Assembly: GCA_902803205.1 (NCBI GenBank)
Contig: CADCOW010000100.1
Span: forward strand, 1 to 57,544
DNA: 57,544 nucleotides
Direction of reading: 5' to 3'
Source of the DNA: an uncultured Eubacteriales bacterium
Lineage (GTDB): Bacteria > Bacillota > Clostridia > Lachnospirales > Lachnospiraceae
Shown here: one piece after another, positions 47,462 through 57,483 of the stretch
Position numbering within the stretch: the first letter of the stretch is position 1
Layout of the letters: every line of letters starts with the position of its first letter
Position numbers and translations under genes: made by a program
Notes under the pieces: model-generated
What the model was told of the DNA's origin: nothing
What the model saw: only the letters and a program-made list of their open reading frames with translations
Databases searched by the model: none

Positions 47462-47496
47462 AAAAGTGGGAGATTTTCTCCCACTTTTTATTTTTT
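47462..47496 (+). terminator. Rho-independent terminator of giant gene 2
   Basis: AAAAGTGGGAG / CTCCCACTTTT stem, loop ATTTT, followed by a T-rich tail. Confidence 0.8.
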
Positions 47497-47627
47497 AAAT
47501 TTGGGGACGGGGTATATTATTGGTGATTTGGGGACACCCTTGGGCGGATGATATCCGCCCCTACAGAATTTAAGTTTGGGTAAATTTGGGGACGGGGTAT
47601 ATTATTGCAATTTTGGGGACACTGTTG
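47497..47627. repeat. Left composite flank: B(+) 47497-47540, A(-) 47542-47564, B(+) 47582-47627
   Basis: AAATTTGGGGACGGGGTATATTATTGGTGATTTGGGGACACCCT, then GGGCGGATGATATCCGCCCCTAC, then TAAATTTGGGGACGGGGTATATTATTGCAATTTTGGGGACACTGTTG. Confidence 0.9.
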
Positions 47628-47633
47628 TATAAT
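47605..47633 (+). promoter_or_regulatory. Candidate promoter of the transposase gene, built partly from the B repeat
   Basis: TTGCAA (47605-47610), 17 nt spacer, TATAAT (47628-47633). GGAGG RBS at 47640-47644. The leader would be very short. Confidence 0.4.
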
Positions 47634-47652: not shown

Positions 47653-48447
47653 ATGCCAAGAGTTGCAAGAGATATTTCAGAAACAAAAATTTATCATATT
47701 ATGAGTAGAGCATTAAACAAACAAACTCTATATGATGATGAACAAGACTTCTTATATTTTTTAAAATTACTTAAAGAAGTGAAAAACGAAACGCATTTCG
47801 AATTGTATGCATATTGCATAATGACAAATCATTATCATTTGTTATTAAAAGAACATGATGTGAAGATAAGTGCAATTATGAATAAAATTAATTCACGATA
47901 TGCAAATTATTACAATTTAAAAAATGGAAGAACTGGTTATGTATTTAACGACCGTTTTCATAGTGAAAGTGTTGACAATTCATCATATCTTTTTAGGTGT
48001 GCGAGATACATTCATCAAAATCCAGTAAAAGTGGGGCTGTGCGATAAAACTTATAATTACAAATTTTCATCTATACATGCATATAGAAGACAGAAAGGAA
48101 ATTATTTAAAACTTGTTGACACTGATTTTATAAATAAGAATTTTAAGTCAAATGAGTTCGCAAGTTGGAATGACTTGGAGAGCCATGATAGATGTATGGA
48201 CATAGCAAATAATAAATTGTCTGATAAGGAAGTGACAAATATTTTATATAAACTCATGAAAGTTGATAATAAAAAAGAGTTTTTAAAAAAGAGTGAAGCG
48301 GAACAAATGTATTACATAATAAAACTTATAGATATGTCTATACCTTTAAAACAATTATCAAGAGTTACAGGACATAGTTATTATAAATTGCAAAAGTTGA
48401 GACGTGGTAAAGTTGGAAATGTAACTAAACTTACTTATAAACCATAG
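47653..48447 (+). CDS. IS200-like Y1 (HUH) tyrosine transposase of the REP-associated (RAYT-like, COG1943) type with a C-terminal HTH region
   Basis: N-terminus MPRVARD..IYHIMSRALNKQTLYDDEQDFLYFL. HUH motif NHYHLLL (H60/H62). Candidate catalytic Tyr in RYIHQNPVK (Y119). The C-terminal ~80 aa look helix-turn-helix-like. Confidence 0.8.
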   Translation: MPRVARDISETKIYHIMSRALNKQTLYDDEQDFLYFLKLLKEVKNETHFELYAYCIMTNHYHLLLKEHDVKISAIMNKINSRYANYYNLKNGRTGYVFNDRFHSESVDNSSYLFRCARYIHQNPVKVGLCDKTYNYKFSSIHAYRRQKGNYLKLVDTDFINKNFKSNEFASWNDLESHDRCMDIANNKLSDKEVTNILYKLMKVDNKKEFLKKSEAEQMYYIIKLIDMSIPLKQLSRVTGHSYYKLQKLRRGKVGNVTKLTYKP

Positions 48448-48451
48448 AGTT

Positions 48452-48570
48452 AGGGTGTCCCTAAATTACCAATAATATACCCGTCCCCAAATTTAAATGC
48501 TGTAGGGGCAGATATCATCCGCCCAAAAGGTGTCCCCAAATCACCAATAATATACCCCGTCCCCAAATTT
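48452..48570. repeat. Right composite flank: B(-) 48452-48494, A(+) 48502-48524, B(-) 48528-48570
   Basis: AGGGTGTCCCTAAATTACCAATAATATACCCGTCCCCAAATTT, then GTAGGGGCAGATATCATCCGCCC, then AGGTGTCCCCAAATCACCAATAATATACCCCGTCCCCAAATTT. Confidence 0.9.
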
Positions 48571-48572
48571 AA

Positions 48573-50192
48573 ATGGTAAGTAGAACTAAAAATATAATAA
48601 TAAATTTGTGCATGAGTACACTTGGTACAATTTTTTTGATTTATTATATCTTTAGGGGAAGTACTGATGTTGTGGCAAGTGATTATATTCGTATAATTAA
48701 TTATTATCTTGAAGATGTAAGTGATTTACACTATTTGTTGTCGTGGGAAGGAATTGCAAGAATACCATTCACATTTCTTATGAGATTTTTAAATGTCAAA
48801 ATATTTAGTTATTCAGTTTTTTTTGACAAAATTATAGGAACTTTTGGATTATTCTTATTTAATATGGTGATACTTAGTTTTGTACTTAAATATTTACATA
48901 GTAAACCCATAAGGATGATTGCAAGTTTTCTAATTACTTATATTTCATTTTCACTTATGGCTTGGGAAATGATTTTAAATGGCACTGGCTATGCTCACTT
49001 TTTAACGGTAGGACTCATGGCATTAACATTTAAAATGTTTGCAAATATAGAGGGAATGAGTATAAATGCAAATGTGAAATTAAAAAATCATTTACAACTT
49101 TCCTTACTAATAATCATTACTTCACTTTGTTTTGCTGGTAGTTATAGTGTATCATATCTTTGCACAATTATTTTCTTTTCAATCGTTTCTATAATAGTAA
49201 GATTGCACAAAAAAGAAAATAGAAAAGAAAAATTTTTAAGTCAAATAGTGTACATTGTGATTTCAATTGTTTGTCTTTCACTTTATTTCAAAAGCAATAA
49301 TACTGGTGAAGCATTGATACCAGTTGGATTTAAAGACATTTCTTTGATTGAATTACTAAAGACGCAACCATTGTTCCCTATTAAGTTTATGCTAAAAAGT
49401 TTGGCGAGCAGTATAATAGGTGTAGAAACATTTGACTATGCACTTAAATTTGGAACCATCAGTGAAAAGTTTATATTTTTGATAGGATTTATATATTTAA
49501 TAATAATTATATTTGTTATAGTATTACTTATAATTAAAATTATAAATGTTGTTCGCATAGTTTATTGTAAAAATGATGTTGATGGTGCGAATGTCACGAA
49601 ACAAAATGAAAGCGAAGTTCTTATAAATGAAGAATTAAGTTTATTTATTTTTATAAGTATGTTTATAGTAGCAGGAATAGCAAACTATTTACTTATATTT
49701 CTTGCAAGATACAAATTTGTTGTTGATAGTTATGGAATGACAAGTAGGTATTCGCTTCAATATATGTTTTTGACTATAGGAATTTTAATGCTTCTTTTAA
49801 AATTGATGGATGAATTATTGGCGAAGCATTTGCAAAATGATGTGAGCATAGTTCAGATGCAAAATAAAAGTGAAACTAAGAAAAAAGTTTTTTTATTAGC
49901 ATTTAATAATAAAATAAAAACATTTTTAATGGTGTCAAGTATAATGTCTCTAAGTTTTATAACGATAGGACATTTGACAACCAACACTGATGAAATTTTT
50001 AAAGCAGATTATAGAAAAATTATATATAGTGTAGTAGAAGATAAGGCAAAAAATTATAAGAATTTGACTGACCAAGATTTAGAAGATACCTTTGAGTATC
50101 ATAGAGGACCAGAACAAATTAGAAAAGCATTTGAAATTCTTGAAAATCAAAAACTAAATATTTTTAGGGAATCACAAAAAAATAATAATTAA
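48573..50192 (+). CDS. Polytopic integral membrane protein of unknown function (possibly cell-envelope glycopolymer related)
   Basis: 539-aa ORF with many long hydrophobic segments. The start is uncertain: ATG 48573 directly abuts repeat B and has no obvious RBS. It lies just upstream of rfbF. Confidence 0.55.
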   Translation: MVSRTKNIIINLCMSTLGTIFLIYYIFRGSTDVVASDYIRIINYYLEDVSDLHYLLSWEGIARIPFTFLMRFLNVKIFSYSVFFDKIIGTFGLFLFNMVILSFVLKYLHSKPIRMIASFLITYISFSLMAWEMILNGTGYAHFLTVGLMALTFKMFANIEGMSINANVKLKNHLQLSLLIIITSLCFAGSYSVSYLCTIIFFSIVSIIVRLHKKENRKEKFLSQIVYIVISIVCLSLYFKSNNTGEALIPVGFKDISLIELLKTQPLFPIKFMLKSLASSIIGVETFDYALKFGTISEKFIFLIGFIYLIIIIFVIVLLIIKIINVVRIVYCKNDVDGANVTKQNESEVLINEELSLFIFISMFIVAGIANYLLIFLARYKFVVDSYGMTSRYSLQYMFLTIGILMLLLKLMDELLAKHLQNDVSIVQMQNKSETKKKVFLLAFNNKIKTFLMVSSIMSLSFITIGHLTTNTDEIFKADYRKIIYSVVEDKAKNYKNLTDQDLEDTFEYHRGPEQIRKAFEILENQKLNIFRESQKNNN

Positions 50193-51890: not shown

Positions 51891-53021
51891 ATGAAAGTAT
51901 TAGTTGCTATGTCAGGCGGAGTTGACTCAACCGTTACCGCTCATATATTAAAAAAACAAGGTTATGAAGTAGTAGGTGTAAATTTTAATTTTACTGGGAA
52001 TGATGCTACTTGCATAACCTTTGATGATATTGCTGAAAAATTAGATATTAAAATTATTTACAATGATTATAGACAAGAATTTTATGATAAAGTTATAACT
52101 TCTTTTGTTCGCGACTATGAATCAGGCATTACTCCAAATCCTTGTGCACTTTGCAACAATGTGATGAAATTTGCAAAACTTATAGATGTGATGAAAGAAG
52201 AAAGCTGTGATATGATTGCTACAGGTCATTATGCAAATGTTACAAAAATAAATGACAGATATTGCATAAAGAAAAGTGAAAATGAGATGAAAGACCAGTC
52301 GTATATGCTCTATCGTCTTAGCCAAGAACAACTTTCTCATATCATTTTCCCAATAGGTAATATGGATAAAAAGAATGTGAGGCAAATTGCAACTGAACTA
52401 AATCTTGAAGTTGCAAATAAAAAAGATTCTCAAGATGTTTGTTTCATAAAAGATATTCCATATCAAGAATTTATAAAAAGATATGAATATGGTGATGATT
52501 ATAAAGAAAGAATTGCAAGAGGTGAACTTAAGGAAAAAGATATTTTATTTAAGCCTTATCTTAAAAAGGGAGAGTTTATAGATACCGATGGTAAGGTTTT
52601 AGGTTTTCATAATGGTATAATAAATTATACTATTGGACAAAGAAAAGGATTAAATATTGCTTTTGGTGAAAGAAAATTTGTAGTATCTATAGACGCAAAA
52701 AAAAATCAAGTAATACTTGGGAATAATTCTGATTTACAAGCAACAGAATTTAAAATATATGATATTGTCTACAGTGGACTAACAAAAGAAGAACTTTTAA
52801 CTTTCAGCAAAAAGATGTTTGCAAAACTTCGTTATAGGCACGAACCGACTGAATGTCATTTAAATTTGGGGACGGGGTATAATATTTATGATTTGGGGAC
52901 ACTGTTTATTCCAGTCAAACTTTCAAGTCCAGTTAGAGCCATAACCCCAGGTCAGTCGGCTGTTTTCTATGATGAAGAGGGGAGAATACTATTTGGCGGT
53001 AGAATATCATCACCATCGTAG
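51891..53021 (+). CDS. mnmA: tRNA-specific 2-thiouridylase MnmA, carrying an in-frame repeat-derived insertion
   Basis: PP-loop SGGVDS, NPCALCNN..KF, ATGHYA, KDQSYML, KKDSQDVCF, ITPGQSAVFY. The stop codon TAG 53019-53021 lies inside the GTAG of a family-A repeat. Confidence 0.93.
   Translation: MKVLVAMSGGVDSTVTAHILKKQGYEVVGVNFNFTGNDATCITFDDIAEKLDIKIIYNDYRQEFYDKVITSFVRDYESGITPNPCALCNNVMKFAKLIDVMKEESCDMIATGHYANVTKINDRYCIKKSENEMKDQSYMLYRLSQEQLSHIIFPIGNMDKKNVRQIATELNLEVANKKDSQDVCFIKDIPYQEFIKRYEYGDDYKERIARGELKEKDILFKPYLKKGEFIDTDGKVLGFHNGIINYTIGQRKGLNIAFGERKFVVSIDAKKNQVILGNNSDLQATEFKIYDIVYSGLTKEELLTFSKKMFAKLRYRHEPTECHLNLGTGYNIYDLGTLFIPVKLSSPVRAITPGQSAVFYDEEGRILFGGRISSPS
52860..52907 (+). repeat. 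Family-B repeat copy inside the mnmA coding sequence (48 nt, 16 codons: LNLGTGYNIYDLGTLF)
   Basis: TTAAATTTGGGGACGGGGTATA...TTGGGGACACTGTT matches the intergenic copy at 47582-47627 over 21-nt and 14-nt identical blocks. Confidence 0.85.
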
Positions 53022-53090
53022 TGGCGGATACCATCCCCAAATGTAGGGGCGGATATCATCTCTGATTGTAGCGGCGGATATCATCCGCCC
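53018..53090 (+). repeat. Three tandem family-A REP-like elements directly after (and overlapping) the mnmA stop
   Basis: GTAGTGGCGGATACCATCCCC (53018-53038), GTAGGGGCGGATATCATCTCT (53043-53063), GTAGCGGCGGATATCATCCGCCC (53068-53090). Confidence 0.85.
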
Positions 53091-53103
53091 ATGGTAAAAA
53101 ATA

Positions 53104-54393
53104 ATGAAGTACAAAAATATACAAAAAATAAATAATATTTTAAGAGTAAAGAGTTGTATCATTTTAATTATTGCTCTAATAGTCAATTTATTTGCATGTG
53201 CAAAAACACTAAACTTAGTAGATCCAAATGAAGTAGCAAAAGAATCATTTGATACAGAAACTTTGCAAGCAGTAACCATAGGTATTGAAGCGTATAGTGA
53301 CTTAGATAAAGTTTATCCAAGTGGATTATATAGTGCAGATCAAAAAAATATAGACACTTTAAATGAAAATACTAAGGATGAAATAGATGGTACTGATGAA
53401 AGTATAGAAATTGAAGAAGTCATAGATGAACAAGATTCAGATACAAATGATAATCAGGATAGTGAAAATGGTTTTGAAATAAGACAAGATTTATATGAAG
53501 TTTTAGATATTGATTCAGATAAAACTTCAAGCACAGTATTAGCTACAAGTTCTAATGGCAAGACTATAGTTCGTAATAAAAAAAGGTTTATTGATTATGA
53601 ATACGATACTCTTGACCCAGTGATTGTAAAAAAAGTTTATCTTAATAAAGATTATCAATTTGCAACATTTTCAGTTATAAATTCTGGCTATGCCACACTA
53701 TATATGGTCAATAAAAAAGTTGTGCCAAATTATAAAGGGAAAGTTGTAGCAGTAAATGCCGGACATGGAGTAAATGGTGGAACAAGAAAAAAAACTTTTT
53801 CTCATCCAGATTTTACACCAAAAGTATCAGGTGGGTCAACAAAAGAGGGGGCAATATATTCTTACGCCATATCAGATGGGATGGTTTTCTTAAATGGGAT
53901 TCAGGAATCAGTTGTTAATCTTTTAGTAGCAATTAAACTTCGTGATAAATTAATAAATGAAGGATATACTGTGCTTATGATGCGAGAGGATGAAAAGAGC
54001 CGGCTTGATAATATTGCTAGAATAGTGATTGCAAATGAGTATGCTGACTGTCATTTATCAATTCATTTTGATTCAACTGATGGCGATAAAGGAATTTTTT
54101 ATGTAAAGCCAATTAACAATAAAAAATTTCTTGAGATGGAACCACTTAAATCAAATTATGATAATATAGTTAAATTTGGTAATTGTCTAATAGAGGCATT
54201 TAGAGAAAAAAATGAAAAAATTTGGAGAAATGAGGGCATACTTCCAGGTGACTTAACTCAAATTGCATTTTCAACAAATGCAAGTGTCGATATAGAACTT
54301 GGTGATCGTGCAAGTGTAGTTGATGAAGCAAGAGCAGATGTCTTGGCAGATGGACTACTACTTGGAATCCAAAAATTTTTTGACTTAAATTAG
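53104..54393 (+). CDS. N-acetylmuramoyl-L-alanine amidase (Amidase_3 family), predicted lipoprotein
   Basis: Lipobox-like LFAC after a hydrophobic N-terminus. C-terminal domain VVAVNAGHG...E..VNL.VA.KL...L...GY.V.M.RED........R...AN.....HLSIHFDS. Confidence 0.75.
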   Translation: MKYKNIQKINNILRVKSCIILIIALIVNLFACAKTLNLVDPNEVAKESFDTETLQAVTIGIEAYSDLDKVYPSGLYSADQKNIDTLNENTKDEIDGTDESIEIEEVIDEQDSDTNDNQDSENGFEIRQDLYEVLDIDSDKTSSTVLATSSNGKTIVRNKKRFIDYEYDTLDPVIVKKVYLNKDYQFATFSVINSGYATLYMVNKKVVPNYKGKVVAVNAGHGVNGGTRKKTFSHPDFTPKVSGGSTKEGAIYSYAISDGMVFLNGIQESVVNLLVAIKLRDKLINEGYTVLMMREDEKSRLDNIARIVIANEYADCHLSIHFDSTDGDKGIFYVKPINNKKFLEMEPLKSNYDNIVKFGNCLIEAFREKNEKIWRNEGILPGDLTQIAFSTNASVDIELGDRASVVDEARADVLADGLLLGIQKFFDLN

Positions 54394-54534
54394 GGGACGG
54401 GGTATATTATTTGAAATTTAGGGACACCCTTTAAAATCAAGTAAAATAAACCATTTTTAAGACCAACAGTGTCCCCAATTCGTCAATAATATACCCCGTC
54501 CCCTAATTTAAAAACCAACAGTGTCCCCAAATTT
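54385..54534. repeat. Family-B inverted doublet plus a solo half-copy (REPIN-like)
   Basis: B(+) 54385-54430, B(-) 54464-54510, half copy CCAACAGTGTCCCCAAATT at 54516-54534. Confidence 0.85.
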
Positions 54535-57238: not shown

Positions 57239-57440
57239 GTATGGGGCGAATATCTTGCTTATCGTAGGGGCGGATATCATCCGCCTATTGTATTGGCGGA
57301 TATCTTGCCTATCGTAGGGGTGGATATCATCCGCCTATTGTATGGACAGATACCATTTGCCTATCGTAGGGGCGGATATCATCCGCCTATTGTATGGACA
57401 GATATCATTTGCCTATCGTAGGGGCGGATATCATCCGCCC
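57239..57440 (+). repeat. Head-to-tail array of 8 family-A REP-like units, alternating decayed (GTAT..) and intact (GTAGGGGCGGATATCATCCGCC) forms
   Basis: GTAG heads at 57264, 57314, 57366 and 57418 (spacings of 50, 52 and 52 bp). The interleaved GTAT units are homologous to the same motif. Confidence 0.85.
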
Positions 57441-57483
57441 GATTTATTAAGAAATTGTTAAGAAAACTTTATAATAAATTATA

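Follow-up and report, generated by a model that had tools for sequence, protein, structure and literature searches.

In-frame copy of a RAYT-associated repeat at the predicted hairpin tip of MnmA in an uncultured rumen bacterium

The mnmA gene of an uncultured bacterium of the Lachnospiraceae lineage contains, inside its open reading frame, a copy of a short repeat (family B) that also occurs between the genes nearby. We consider this 48–50-nt segment to be, quite probably, the fossil of a mobile-repeat insertion, with a single B unit lodged in the tip of a hairpin of the MnmA protein. The window referred to below is the whole 57,544-nt stretch of DNA that was analyzed (contig CADCOW010000100.1, positions 1 to 57,544). 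The gene and the repeat copy within it are as follows.

51891–53021, plus strand: mnmA, intact, encoding a tRNA 2-thiouridine(34) synthase of 376 aa (Pfam, NCBIfam, Foldseek, dN/dS).
52858–52907, plus strand: B-repeat copy in mnmA, encoding (H)LNLGTGYNIYDLGTLF, residues 323/324–339 (sequence match).

The segment at 52860–52907 reads TTAAATTTGGGGACGGGGTATAATATTTATGATTTGGGGACACTGTTT, keeps the reading frame within ORF 51891–53021, and is translated as LNLGTGYNIYDLGTLF, placed between RYRHEPTECH and IPVKLSSPVRAITPGQ. The first-pass annotation had described it as an in-frame copy of family B at this junction, and both the sequence match and the translation of the open frame bear out that observation. 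The copy shares 40 of 48 bases with the intergenic copy at 47580–47627, including identical blocks of 21 and 15 nt; the first of these lengths had been given correctly, and the second had been put at 14 nt. The 19-mer AAATTTGGGGACGGGGTAT occurs four times exactly in the window and twice more with one mismatch, and none would be expected by chance, judging from 100 shuffles. Comparison of the copies suggests that the repeat truly starts about 2 nt earlier, at the AT of a CAT codon (52858), where it would begin ATTTAAATTT... As read from the sequence, the other two forward frames of B run into TAA, and in the commonest intergenic variant of B the frame that mnmA uses is interrupted by a TGA, which is missing from the genic copies. 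Two further features were considered for the mnmA copy and set aside: an internal promoter was dropped, as the promoter scan gave no plus-strand promoter-like site in the copy despite a TATAAT there, and a G-quadruplex was rejected on inspection, the copy having only three G-runs.

The product of ORF 51891–53021 scores 354.9 bits against NCBIfam NF001138 (cut-off 284), contains three Pfam domains (tRNA_Me_trans, _M, and _C), and has solved MnmA structures as its best sequence and fold matches, with TM values of 0.81–0.83 between its model and 2HMA, 2DEU, and 2DET (Foldseek). In an alignment of 35 sequences, SGGVDS (S8–S13, PP-loop), C85, C88, and C184 are invariant columns, and we take the three cysteines to be the equivalents of the catalytic cysteines of E. 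coli MnmA. All of the conserved motifs are present in this alignment, in agreement with the earlier view that the ORF is open and its catalytic motifs are intact. An AlphaFold2 model built from the same alignment (mean pLDDT 88.4, pTM 0.87) places residues 324–339 in a surface loop at the tip of a β-hairpin, with strands 320–324 and 338–349 bordering the insert and pLDDT values of 65–74 in the loop itself. Structural modeling had been proposed as a check on the 16 residues, and a loop at the hairpin tip is what is predicted; alignment and model likewise support the original placement of the site in a variable strand-connecting segment of the C-terminal domain that directly precedes the PGQ motif, and show it as the variable tip of a β-hairpin in the C-terminal barrel. 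Compared with the MnmA chain of PDB 9hln, the window protein has 9 more residues in this hairpin, and the distance from RYR to TPGQ is presumably about 8 residues longer than in E. coli MnmA.

Among 114 near-full-length MnmA homologs, the baseline form of this hairpin is CxIKRxGDxLxCKL, and distant homologs read, for example, RYRHxxTxCxIKRxGDxLxCKLKEPVRAITxGQ at the site. The pattern LNLGTGY...GT(L)F is found in the protein set only in the window protein and in P0001–P0004 (79–99% identity); contig L143, which was met through the repeat scan, likewise has LNLGTGY..GT(L)F in its MnmA. The DNA boundaries of the B copy are identical in the window, L042, L043, L170, and L143. Orthologs from relatives that are without B in their sequenced flanks have no homologous segment at this position, so a comparison that the first-pass annotation had named as able to overturn its reading came out in favor of that reading. 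It could be argued that the segment arose natively, as an elaboration of the MnmA hairpin peculiar to this lineage, and that the intergenic B copies are either chance likenesses or derived from the gene, and hairpin length does vary naturally among MnmA homologs. We regard this account as very improbable, however. The 19-mer found no match in any of the shuffles; B is present at dozens of intergenic sites, in the flanks of a RAYT-like gene, and in a gene unrelated to mnmA, and its arms are the same every time; and within MnmA the segment is restricted to the closest ortholog clade. The distribution of B copies by itself already contradicts a native origin.

The gene that carries the insertion is under selection, and the insertion is old. 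Among the B-carrying taxa, mnmA shows dS values of 0.4–1.0 and dN/dS values of 0.10–0.14, which indicates purifying selection, and because the B copy is common to at least five taxa separated by dS of up to ~1, the insertion predates their divergence. These values also bear on the proposal that mnmA is decaying or no longer functional and just happens still to be open, or that the insertion is an assembly artefact. The data come from one window, and a second mnmA elsewhere in the genome is possible, but a dN/dS of ~0.10 maintained over such distances speaks against a dead gene, a concern that the first-pass annotation had itself raised. In addition, the conserved motifs are all in place, gene order around mnmA is conserved among relatives, and the identical insertion is seen in five taxa that come from independent assemblies of different samples. 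Taken with the dN/dS value, these observations leave decay or artefact exceedingly unlikely.

The earlier description of the segment as a 16-codon insertion stands insofar as the B copy is in frame, but it does not stand as a plain addition of 16 codons. The net gain of the hairpin over baseline is just 8–9 residues for a repeat-derived peptide of 16 residues, which means that ~6–7 ancestral codons are missing or were overwritten. Either the insertion was not a clean one or an earlier insert was replaced, and it is possible that B took the place of such an insert at the hairpin site. A scan of GTDB genomes returned no genome above 60% MnmA identity; the nearest, at 57–60%, come from sheep omasum and water-deer rumen and are MAGs that carry the label Lachnospiraceae.

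B belongs to a RAYT-associated repeat system, as shown by its physical association with a RAYT-like gene that sits 4.4 kb upstream of the mnmA copy. The first-pass annotation was correct in treating B as a repeat family, but the palindromic character that it had brought to mind did not hold, and in the window B is instead part of this system, the components of which are listed here.

47495–47626, plus strand: left flank of the RAYT-like gene, with B at 47495–47541, an A-type GTAG REP at 47542–47564 (minus strand), and B at 47580–47626.
47653–48447, plus strand: RAYT-like Y1 (HUH) tyrosine transposase of 264 aa with a C-terminal HTH-like tail (Pfam Y1_Tnp, 1.4e-12).
48455–48573, minus strand: right flank of the RAYT-like gene, an inverted composite with B at 48455–48498 (minus), an A-type REP at 48502–48524 (plus), and B at 48530–48573 (minus).
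53011–53091, plus strand: three A-type GTAG REP copies directly 3′ of mnmA (repeat family D7).
54385–54531, both orientations: inverted B pair, REPIN/MITE-like, at 54385–54431 (plus) and 54469–54512 (minus), with a partial third copy at 54517–54531 (minus).

The 264-aa transposase scores 77.8 bits against NCBIfam REP_Tyr_transpos, just below the cut-off of 80, compared with 16.6 for IS200. HYH and RYIHQNP motifs are seen in its sequence, and it is 87% identical to the product of the syntenic gene in L043. The gene is bordered by repeats in inverted orientation, B-A-B on the left and the inverted counterpart on the right. A promoter-like TTGCAA-17-TATAAT (47605–47633) lies inside the B copy before the start codon, and in both L043 and L166 the RAYT gene is preceded by a conserved copy of this B variant, which has the GCAATTTT linker. 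The B-REP-B arrangement upstream of the gene is also present in L166; L043 has a single B, on the upstream side only. The REP between the upstream B pair differs between L166 (L166:13878–14060) and the window (47495–47626), and the B copies are nearly identical; the sandwiched REP of L166 is of the GGGCGAGC...GCGAGCCC type, which is also found in related contigs, for example L045.

When folded as single-stranded DNA, family A (GTAGGGGCGGATATCATCCGCCC) gives a strong hairpin with a GTAG tag (−9.4 kcal/mol, z = −5.1). B alone has a z of ~0 on either strand, with no significant structure, and is not palindromic. The typical form of a REP, a short GC-rich palindrome tagged with GTAG (or CGTC) at its 5′ end, is therefore that of family A and not that of B. 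The B pair after the amidase gene (54385–54512) forms a long hairpin (−34 kcal/mol, z = −8.4), and an orthologous pair is located at the same place in L042; the copy in mnmA is itself a singleton. The Rfam search gave no family for A or B, merely two sub-threshold sraA matches on a terminator hairpin.

Repeat copies also supply the ends of two genes in the window. The first copy of the B pair gives the amidase ORF (53104–54393) its last two codons and stop, TTA AAT TAG. This end, FFDLN followed by the stop, corresponds to the start of B in the mnmA frame with TTG changed to TAG, and it is identical in L042 (L042:4248–4256); in L045, which is without B, the amidase ends FFALD (TTA GAC TAG). No target-site duplication was identified for the B pair, and none is definable because the ends of the pair (TTAAAT/ATTTAA) belong to the inverted repeat itself. 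At mnmA, the first GTAG after the gene supplies the TAG that serves as its stop codon, so that MnmA ends GGRISSPS here, and relatives end GGRIA. The REP cluster at 53011–53091 is absent from L042, L043, L143, and L170; in L042, mnmA adjoins the amidase start codon.

In-frame embedding of repeats runs through a whole group of uncultured rumen bacteria, and mnmA is one case of it. The metagenome scan yielded ~40 B copies across ~20 low-GC contigs, nearly all of them intergenic. Most of the 120 stretches matching the 16-mer TTWGGGGACGGGGTAT were discarded as chance matches in unrelated higher-GC contigs, which left ~20 true low-GC loci, and a protein database search with a 40-aa tandem profile of the B peptide produced zero candidates. 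MnmA homologs P0001–P0120 range from 364 to 492 aa in length, and the variation is concentrated in five hotspots, given below in window residue numbering with the number of sequences, among 114 MnmA homologs, that have at least 5 extra residues.

After residue ~39: 72 of 114, largest insert 53 aa.
After residue ~119: 64 of 114, largest insert 33 aa.
After residue ~188: 36 of 114, largest insert 44 aa.
After residue ~298–302: 31 of 114, largest insert 40 aa.
After residue ~326 (the B site): 57 of 114, largest insert 27 aa.

With half of the homologs carrying extra residues at the B-site hairpin, this site tolerates insertions. Many of the MnmA inserts are translations of GTAG REPs in two stop-free forward frames, as in the peptides VGADTIRP, TVGAKND x4, and RRGELHEP. 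Tandem 21-nt units are seen among the inserts as well, for example TVGAKND four times at L042:1968–2041. Inside long ORFs lie 28 of the 64 REP tags in the loci examined, a fraction biased upward because several loci were chosen for containing mnmA, and 23 of those 28 are co-oriented with the gene. In L045 all 14 REP tags are on the plus strand, and in L001, L002, and others the tags are likewise nearly always on the gene strand.

Further repeat-related features were observed elsewhere in the window. The N terminus of ORF 298–2265 (DUF6273), encoded at 298–420 as MRMGLTEFAHTGGGDNITGTDTICP, resembles two degenerate REP translations; an 11-G homopolymer at 330–340 in this ORF could be slippage-prone, or the true start could lie downstream. 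A tandem array at 57255–57460 is built from two alternating REP variants, GTAGGGGCGGATATCATCCGCC and GTATGGACAGATA(C/T)CATTTGCC, with a 26/52-nt period. Two adjacent giant ORFs, 2924–25066 (7380 aa) and 25525–47448 (7307 aa), have many internal repeats, among them a recurring GGATATACATTCAAAGGTTGG (G-Y-T-F-K-G-W) unit and, near their 5′ ends, acidic Thr-rich tandem repeats.

In-frame B copies in other conserved genes, which the first-pass annotation had advised checking for, do occur: the U32 peptidase of further taxa has one. The hotspot in this protein is located between CRLPY and YILSMKDMCAL, where the baseline is 3–10 residues. In five U32 proteins this spot is taken by the B peptide, HLNLGTGYIIGKKGT(L/P)F, read in the frame that mnmA also uses, the carriers including L063:4559–5614, L167, L168, and L169, and dozens of U32 relatives have REP peptides at that spot.

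In both mnmA and the U32 peptidase gene, no other stretch of the gene is as conserved at the nucleotide level as the B copy, an unusual pattern. The longest nucleotide-identical codon run of mnmA (five taxa) is made up of the first 8 codons of B, which show 0 synonymous differences compared with ~14.5 expected (gene-wide pS 0.453). GGG ACA CTG in the second B arm is also invariant, and the codons just before B nearly all have synonymous changes. In the U32 peptidase gene (four taxa), B likewise provides the longest identical run, of 13 codons. Chance values estimated from column counts are 0.418^8, or ~1e-3, for mnmA and 0.385^13, or ~4e-6, for U32, values that are rough because they are drawn from only four to five related sequences. 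The linker of the mnmA copy reads GAT TTG in the window, like its RAYT-flanking copies, and AAA AAG or AAA ATG in the other taxa. A lack of any synonymous change in the B arms is unlike the prediction for an old insertion that is passively tolerated. The invariance of genic B points to one of three causes: the DNA or RNA itself may be under constraint, other B copies may overwrite genic B by gene conversion, or B may have been inserted at the site anew.

This pattern leads to a second account of the genic copies, one that we consider a reasonable possibility although short of probable: genic B would not be a passive fossil but would be kept uniform either by a role as a binding or recognition site or by repeated conversion or re-insertion. 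Candidate binders would be the RAYT-like protein, through its catalytic or its HTH part, or a host factor. Such an account supplements an insertion origin and does not contradict it. It draws support from the invariant runs in both genes, from the near-identity of intergenic B across contigs with different REP types, and from the resemblance of the window's mnmA linker to its own RAYT-flanking copies. However, neither a binding nor a conversion event was seen, the divergence of the mnmA linker means that homogenisation is at most partial, the intergenic copies of L143 are without the genic linker type even on the same contig, and the number of related sequences keeps the statistics rough.

A broader reading, which we offer tentatively and hold to be the more doubtful, is that in MnmA, the U32 peptidase, and probably many other housekeeping enzymes, permissive loops at the protein surface could act as long-lived landing pads for RAYT-associated repeats, with genic copies remaining live and being recognized, refreshed, or exchanged at the DNA level by conversion or re-insertion. 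Because the genic copies would then be refreshed and not decaying, the sites would cycle between REP-type and B-type inserts, and the arms would stay invariant while the host gene diverges. If true, a REPIN-like population would be living partly inside the proteome.

For the copy in mnmA, the fossil of a mobile-repeat insertion is the origin that we favor, and the course of events was probably as follows. B is ordinarily found between genes, alone or in inverted pairs, as well as in the RAYT flanks and promoter region, and one unit would have inserted into mnmA in an ancestor shared by the members of a small clade of low-GC, uncultured rumen bacteria. The insertion may have survived because the sole stop-free forward frame of B was used, because the length of the insert kept the mnmA frame, and because the site is a structurally permissive surface loop. 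Afterwards it would have been translated as part of a functional enzyme, with the extra peptide probably just tolerated. Both GGGGAC-containing arms have remained unchanged since then, and the linker has drifted and is without the TGA of the commonest intergenic variant. The RAYT-like enzyme, or recombination between repeat copies, could have placed B in mnmA. Hairpin DNA is the substrate of the known RAYT and IS200-type enzymes, and since B by itself folds into none, it is conjectural that the RAYT-like enzyme mobilised a lone B unit directly; the RAYT gene of L043, with B on one side only, also weighs against the favored account.

Repeats that lie in frame in protein-coding genes and are translated at structurally compatible sites are known as RPEs in Rickettsia (PMC3733652, PMC10969869), and the likeness that had been drawn between these palindromic elements and B is apt as an analogy. 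In both cases a short repeat sits in frame in housekeeping genes, the gene stays open, the extra peptide is translated, and copies are common to related species; like RPEs, the mnmA copy of B is an in-frame insertion in a functional gene and, according to the model, occupies a surface position. RPEs, however, are palindromic, with ~100–150 bp in the best-known family, and their host is an alphaproteobacterial obligate intracellular parasite, whereas B is ~50 nt long, forms no palindrome on its own, is hosted by rumen Bacillota of low GC content, and has a physical link to a RAYT-like gene.

The REP/REPIN-RAYT systems (Di Nocera et al. 2013, PMC3733652; Bertels and Rainey, PMC3116915) share with the window a single RAYT-like gene with inverted repeat flanks, a GTAG-tagged hairpin REP (family A here), and inverted doublets (the B pair at 54385–54512). 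GTAG/CGTC REPs lying inside genes have been described in Opitutus, Thauera, and Rickettsia, among others (PMC3733652, PMC10969869). In the relatives considered here, coding-region REPs add 7–50 residues, in many cases as dimers or clusters. Also described, under the term 'TIRYT', are tyrosine transposases bordered by inverted repeats of a non-REP kind, which make up small families of repeats (PMC3733652). The present case differs from REP systems in that the element in mnmA is the non-palindromic B and not a GTAG hairpin, and in that the host is of a clostridial lineage; the stem 'Clostridi' is absent from the main text of PMC3733652. In addition, repeat types replace one another here at several hotspots within a gene, and the genic copies are more nucleotide-conserved than the rest of the gene. 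With respect to the bacterial MITEs that make in-frame fusions (for example ERIC, BOX, and Nezha; reviewed in PMC10969869), the counterpart in the window is the MITE-like B pair, which has inverted arms of ~47 nt, encodes nothing, and folds into a stable hairpin. Unlike MITEs, the mnmA copy is a single arm, the associated enzyme is Y1/HUH and not DDE, and there is no identified target-site duplication.

Rickettsia and a handful of proteobacteria supply the best-known in-frame repeats in functional genes, and a literature search returned nothing on in-frame repeat insertion in Lachnospiraceae-like rumen bacteria; the cases described here now add uncultured rumen Bacillota. The window unites a likely mobilising gene, a classical GTAG REP, a non-palindromic second repeat, and a decorated gene. 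With hotspots in two genes (five in MnmA and one in the U32 peptidase, where a single site can gain as many as ~50 residues) and repeat arms that are invariant inside coding sequence, this lineage amounts to a natural experiment, one that can inform which loops of a protein accept insertions and whether the uniformity of REPIN-type elements is due to selection, conversion, or continued transposition. Such inserts also inflate and fragment metagenome protein families and can be mistaken for real domain variation. Overall, the kind of insertion seen in mnmA is already known from the Rickettsia RPEs and the intragenic GTAG REPs, and what is unusual is its extent in these bacteria and the conservation pattern of the repeat within the genes that carry it.
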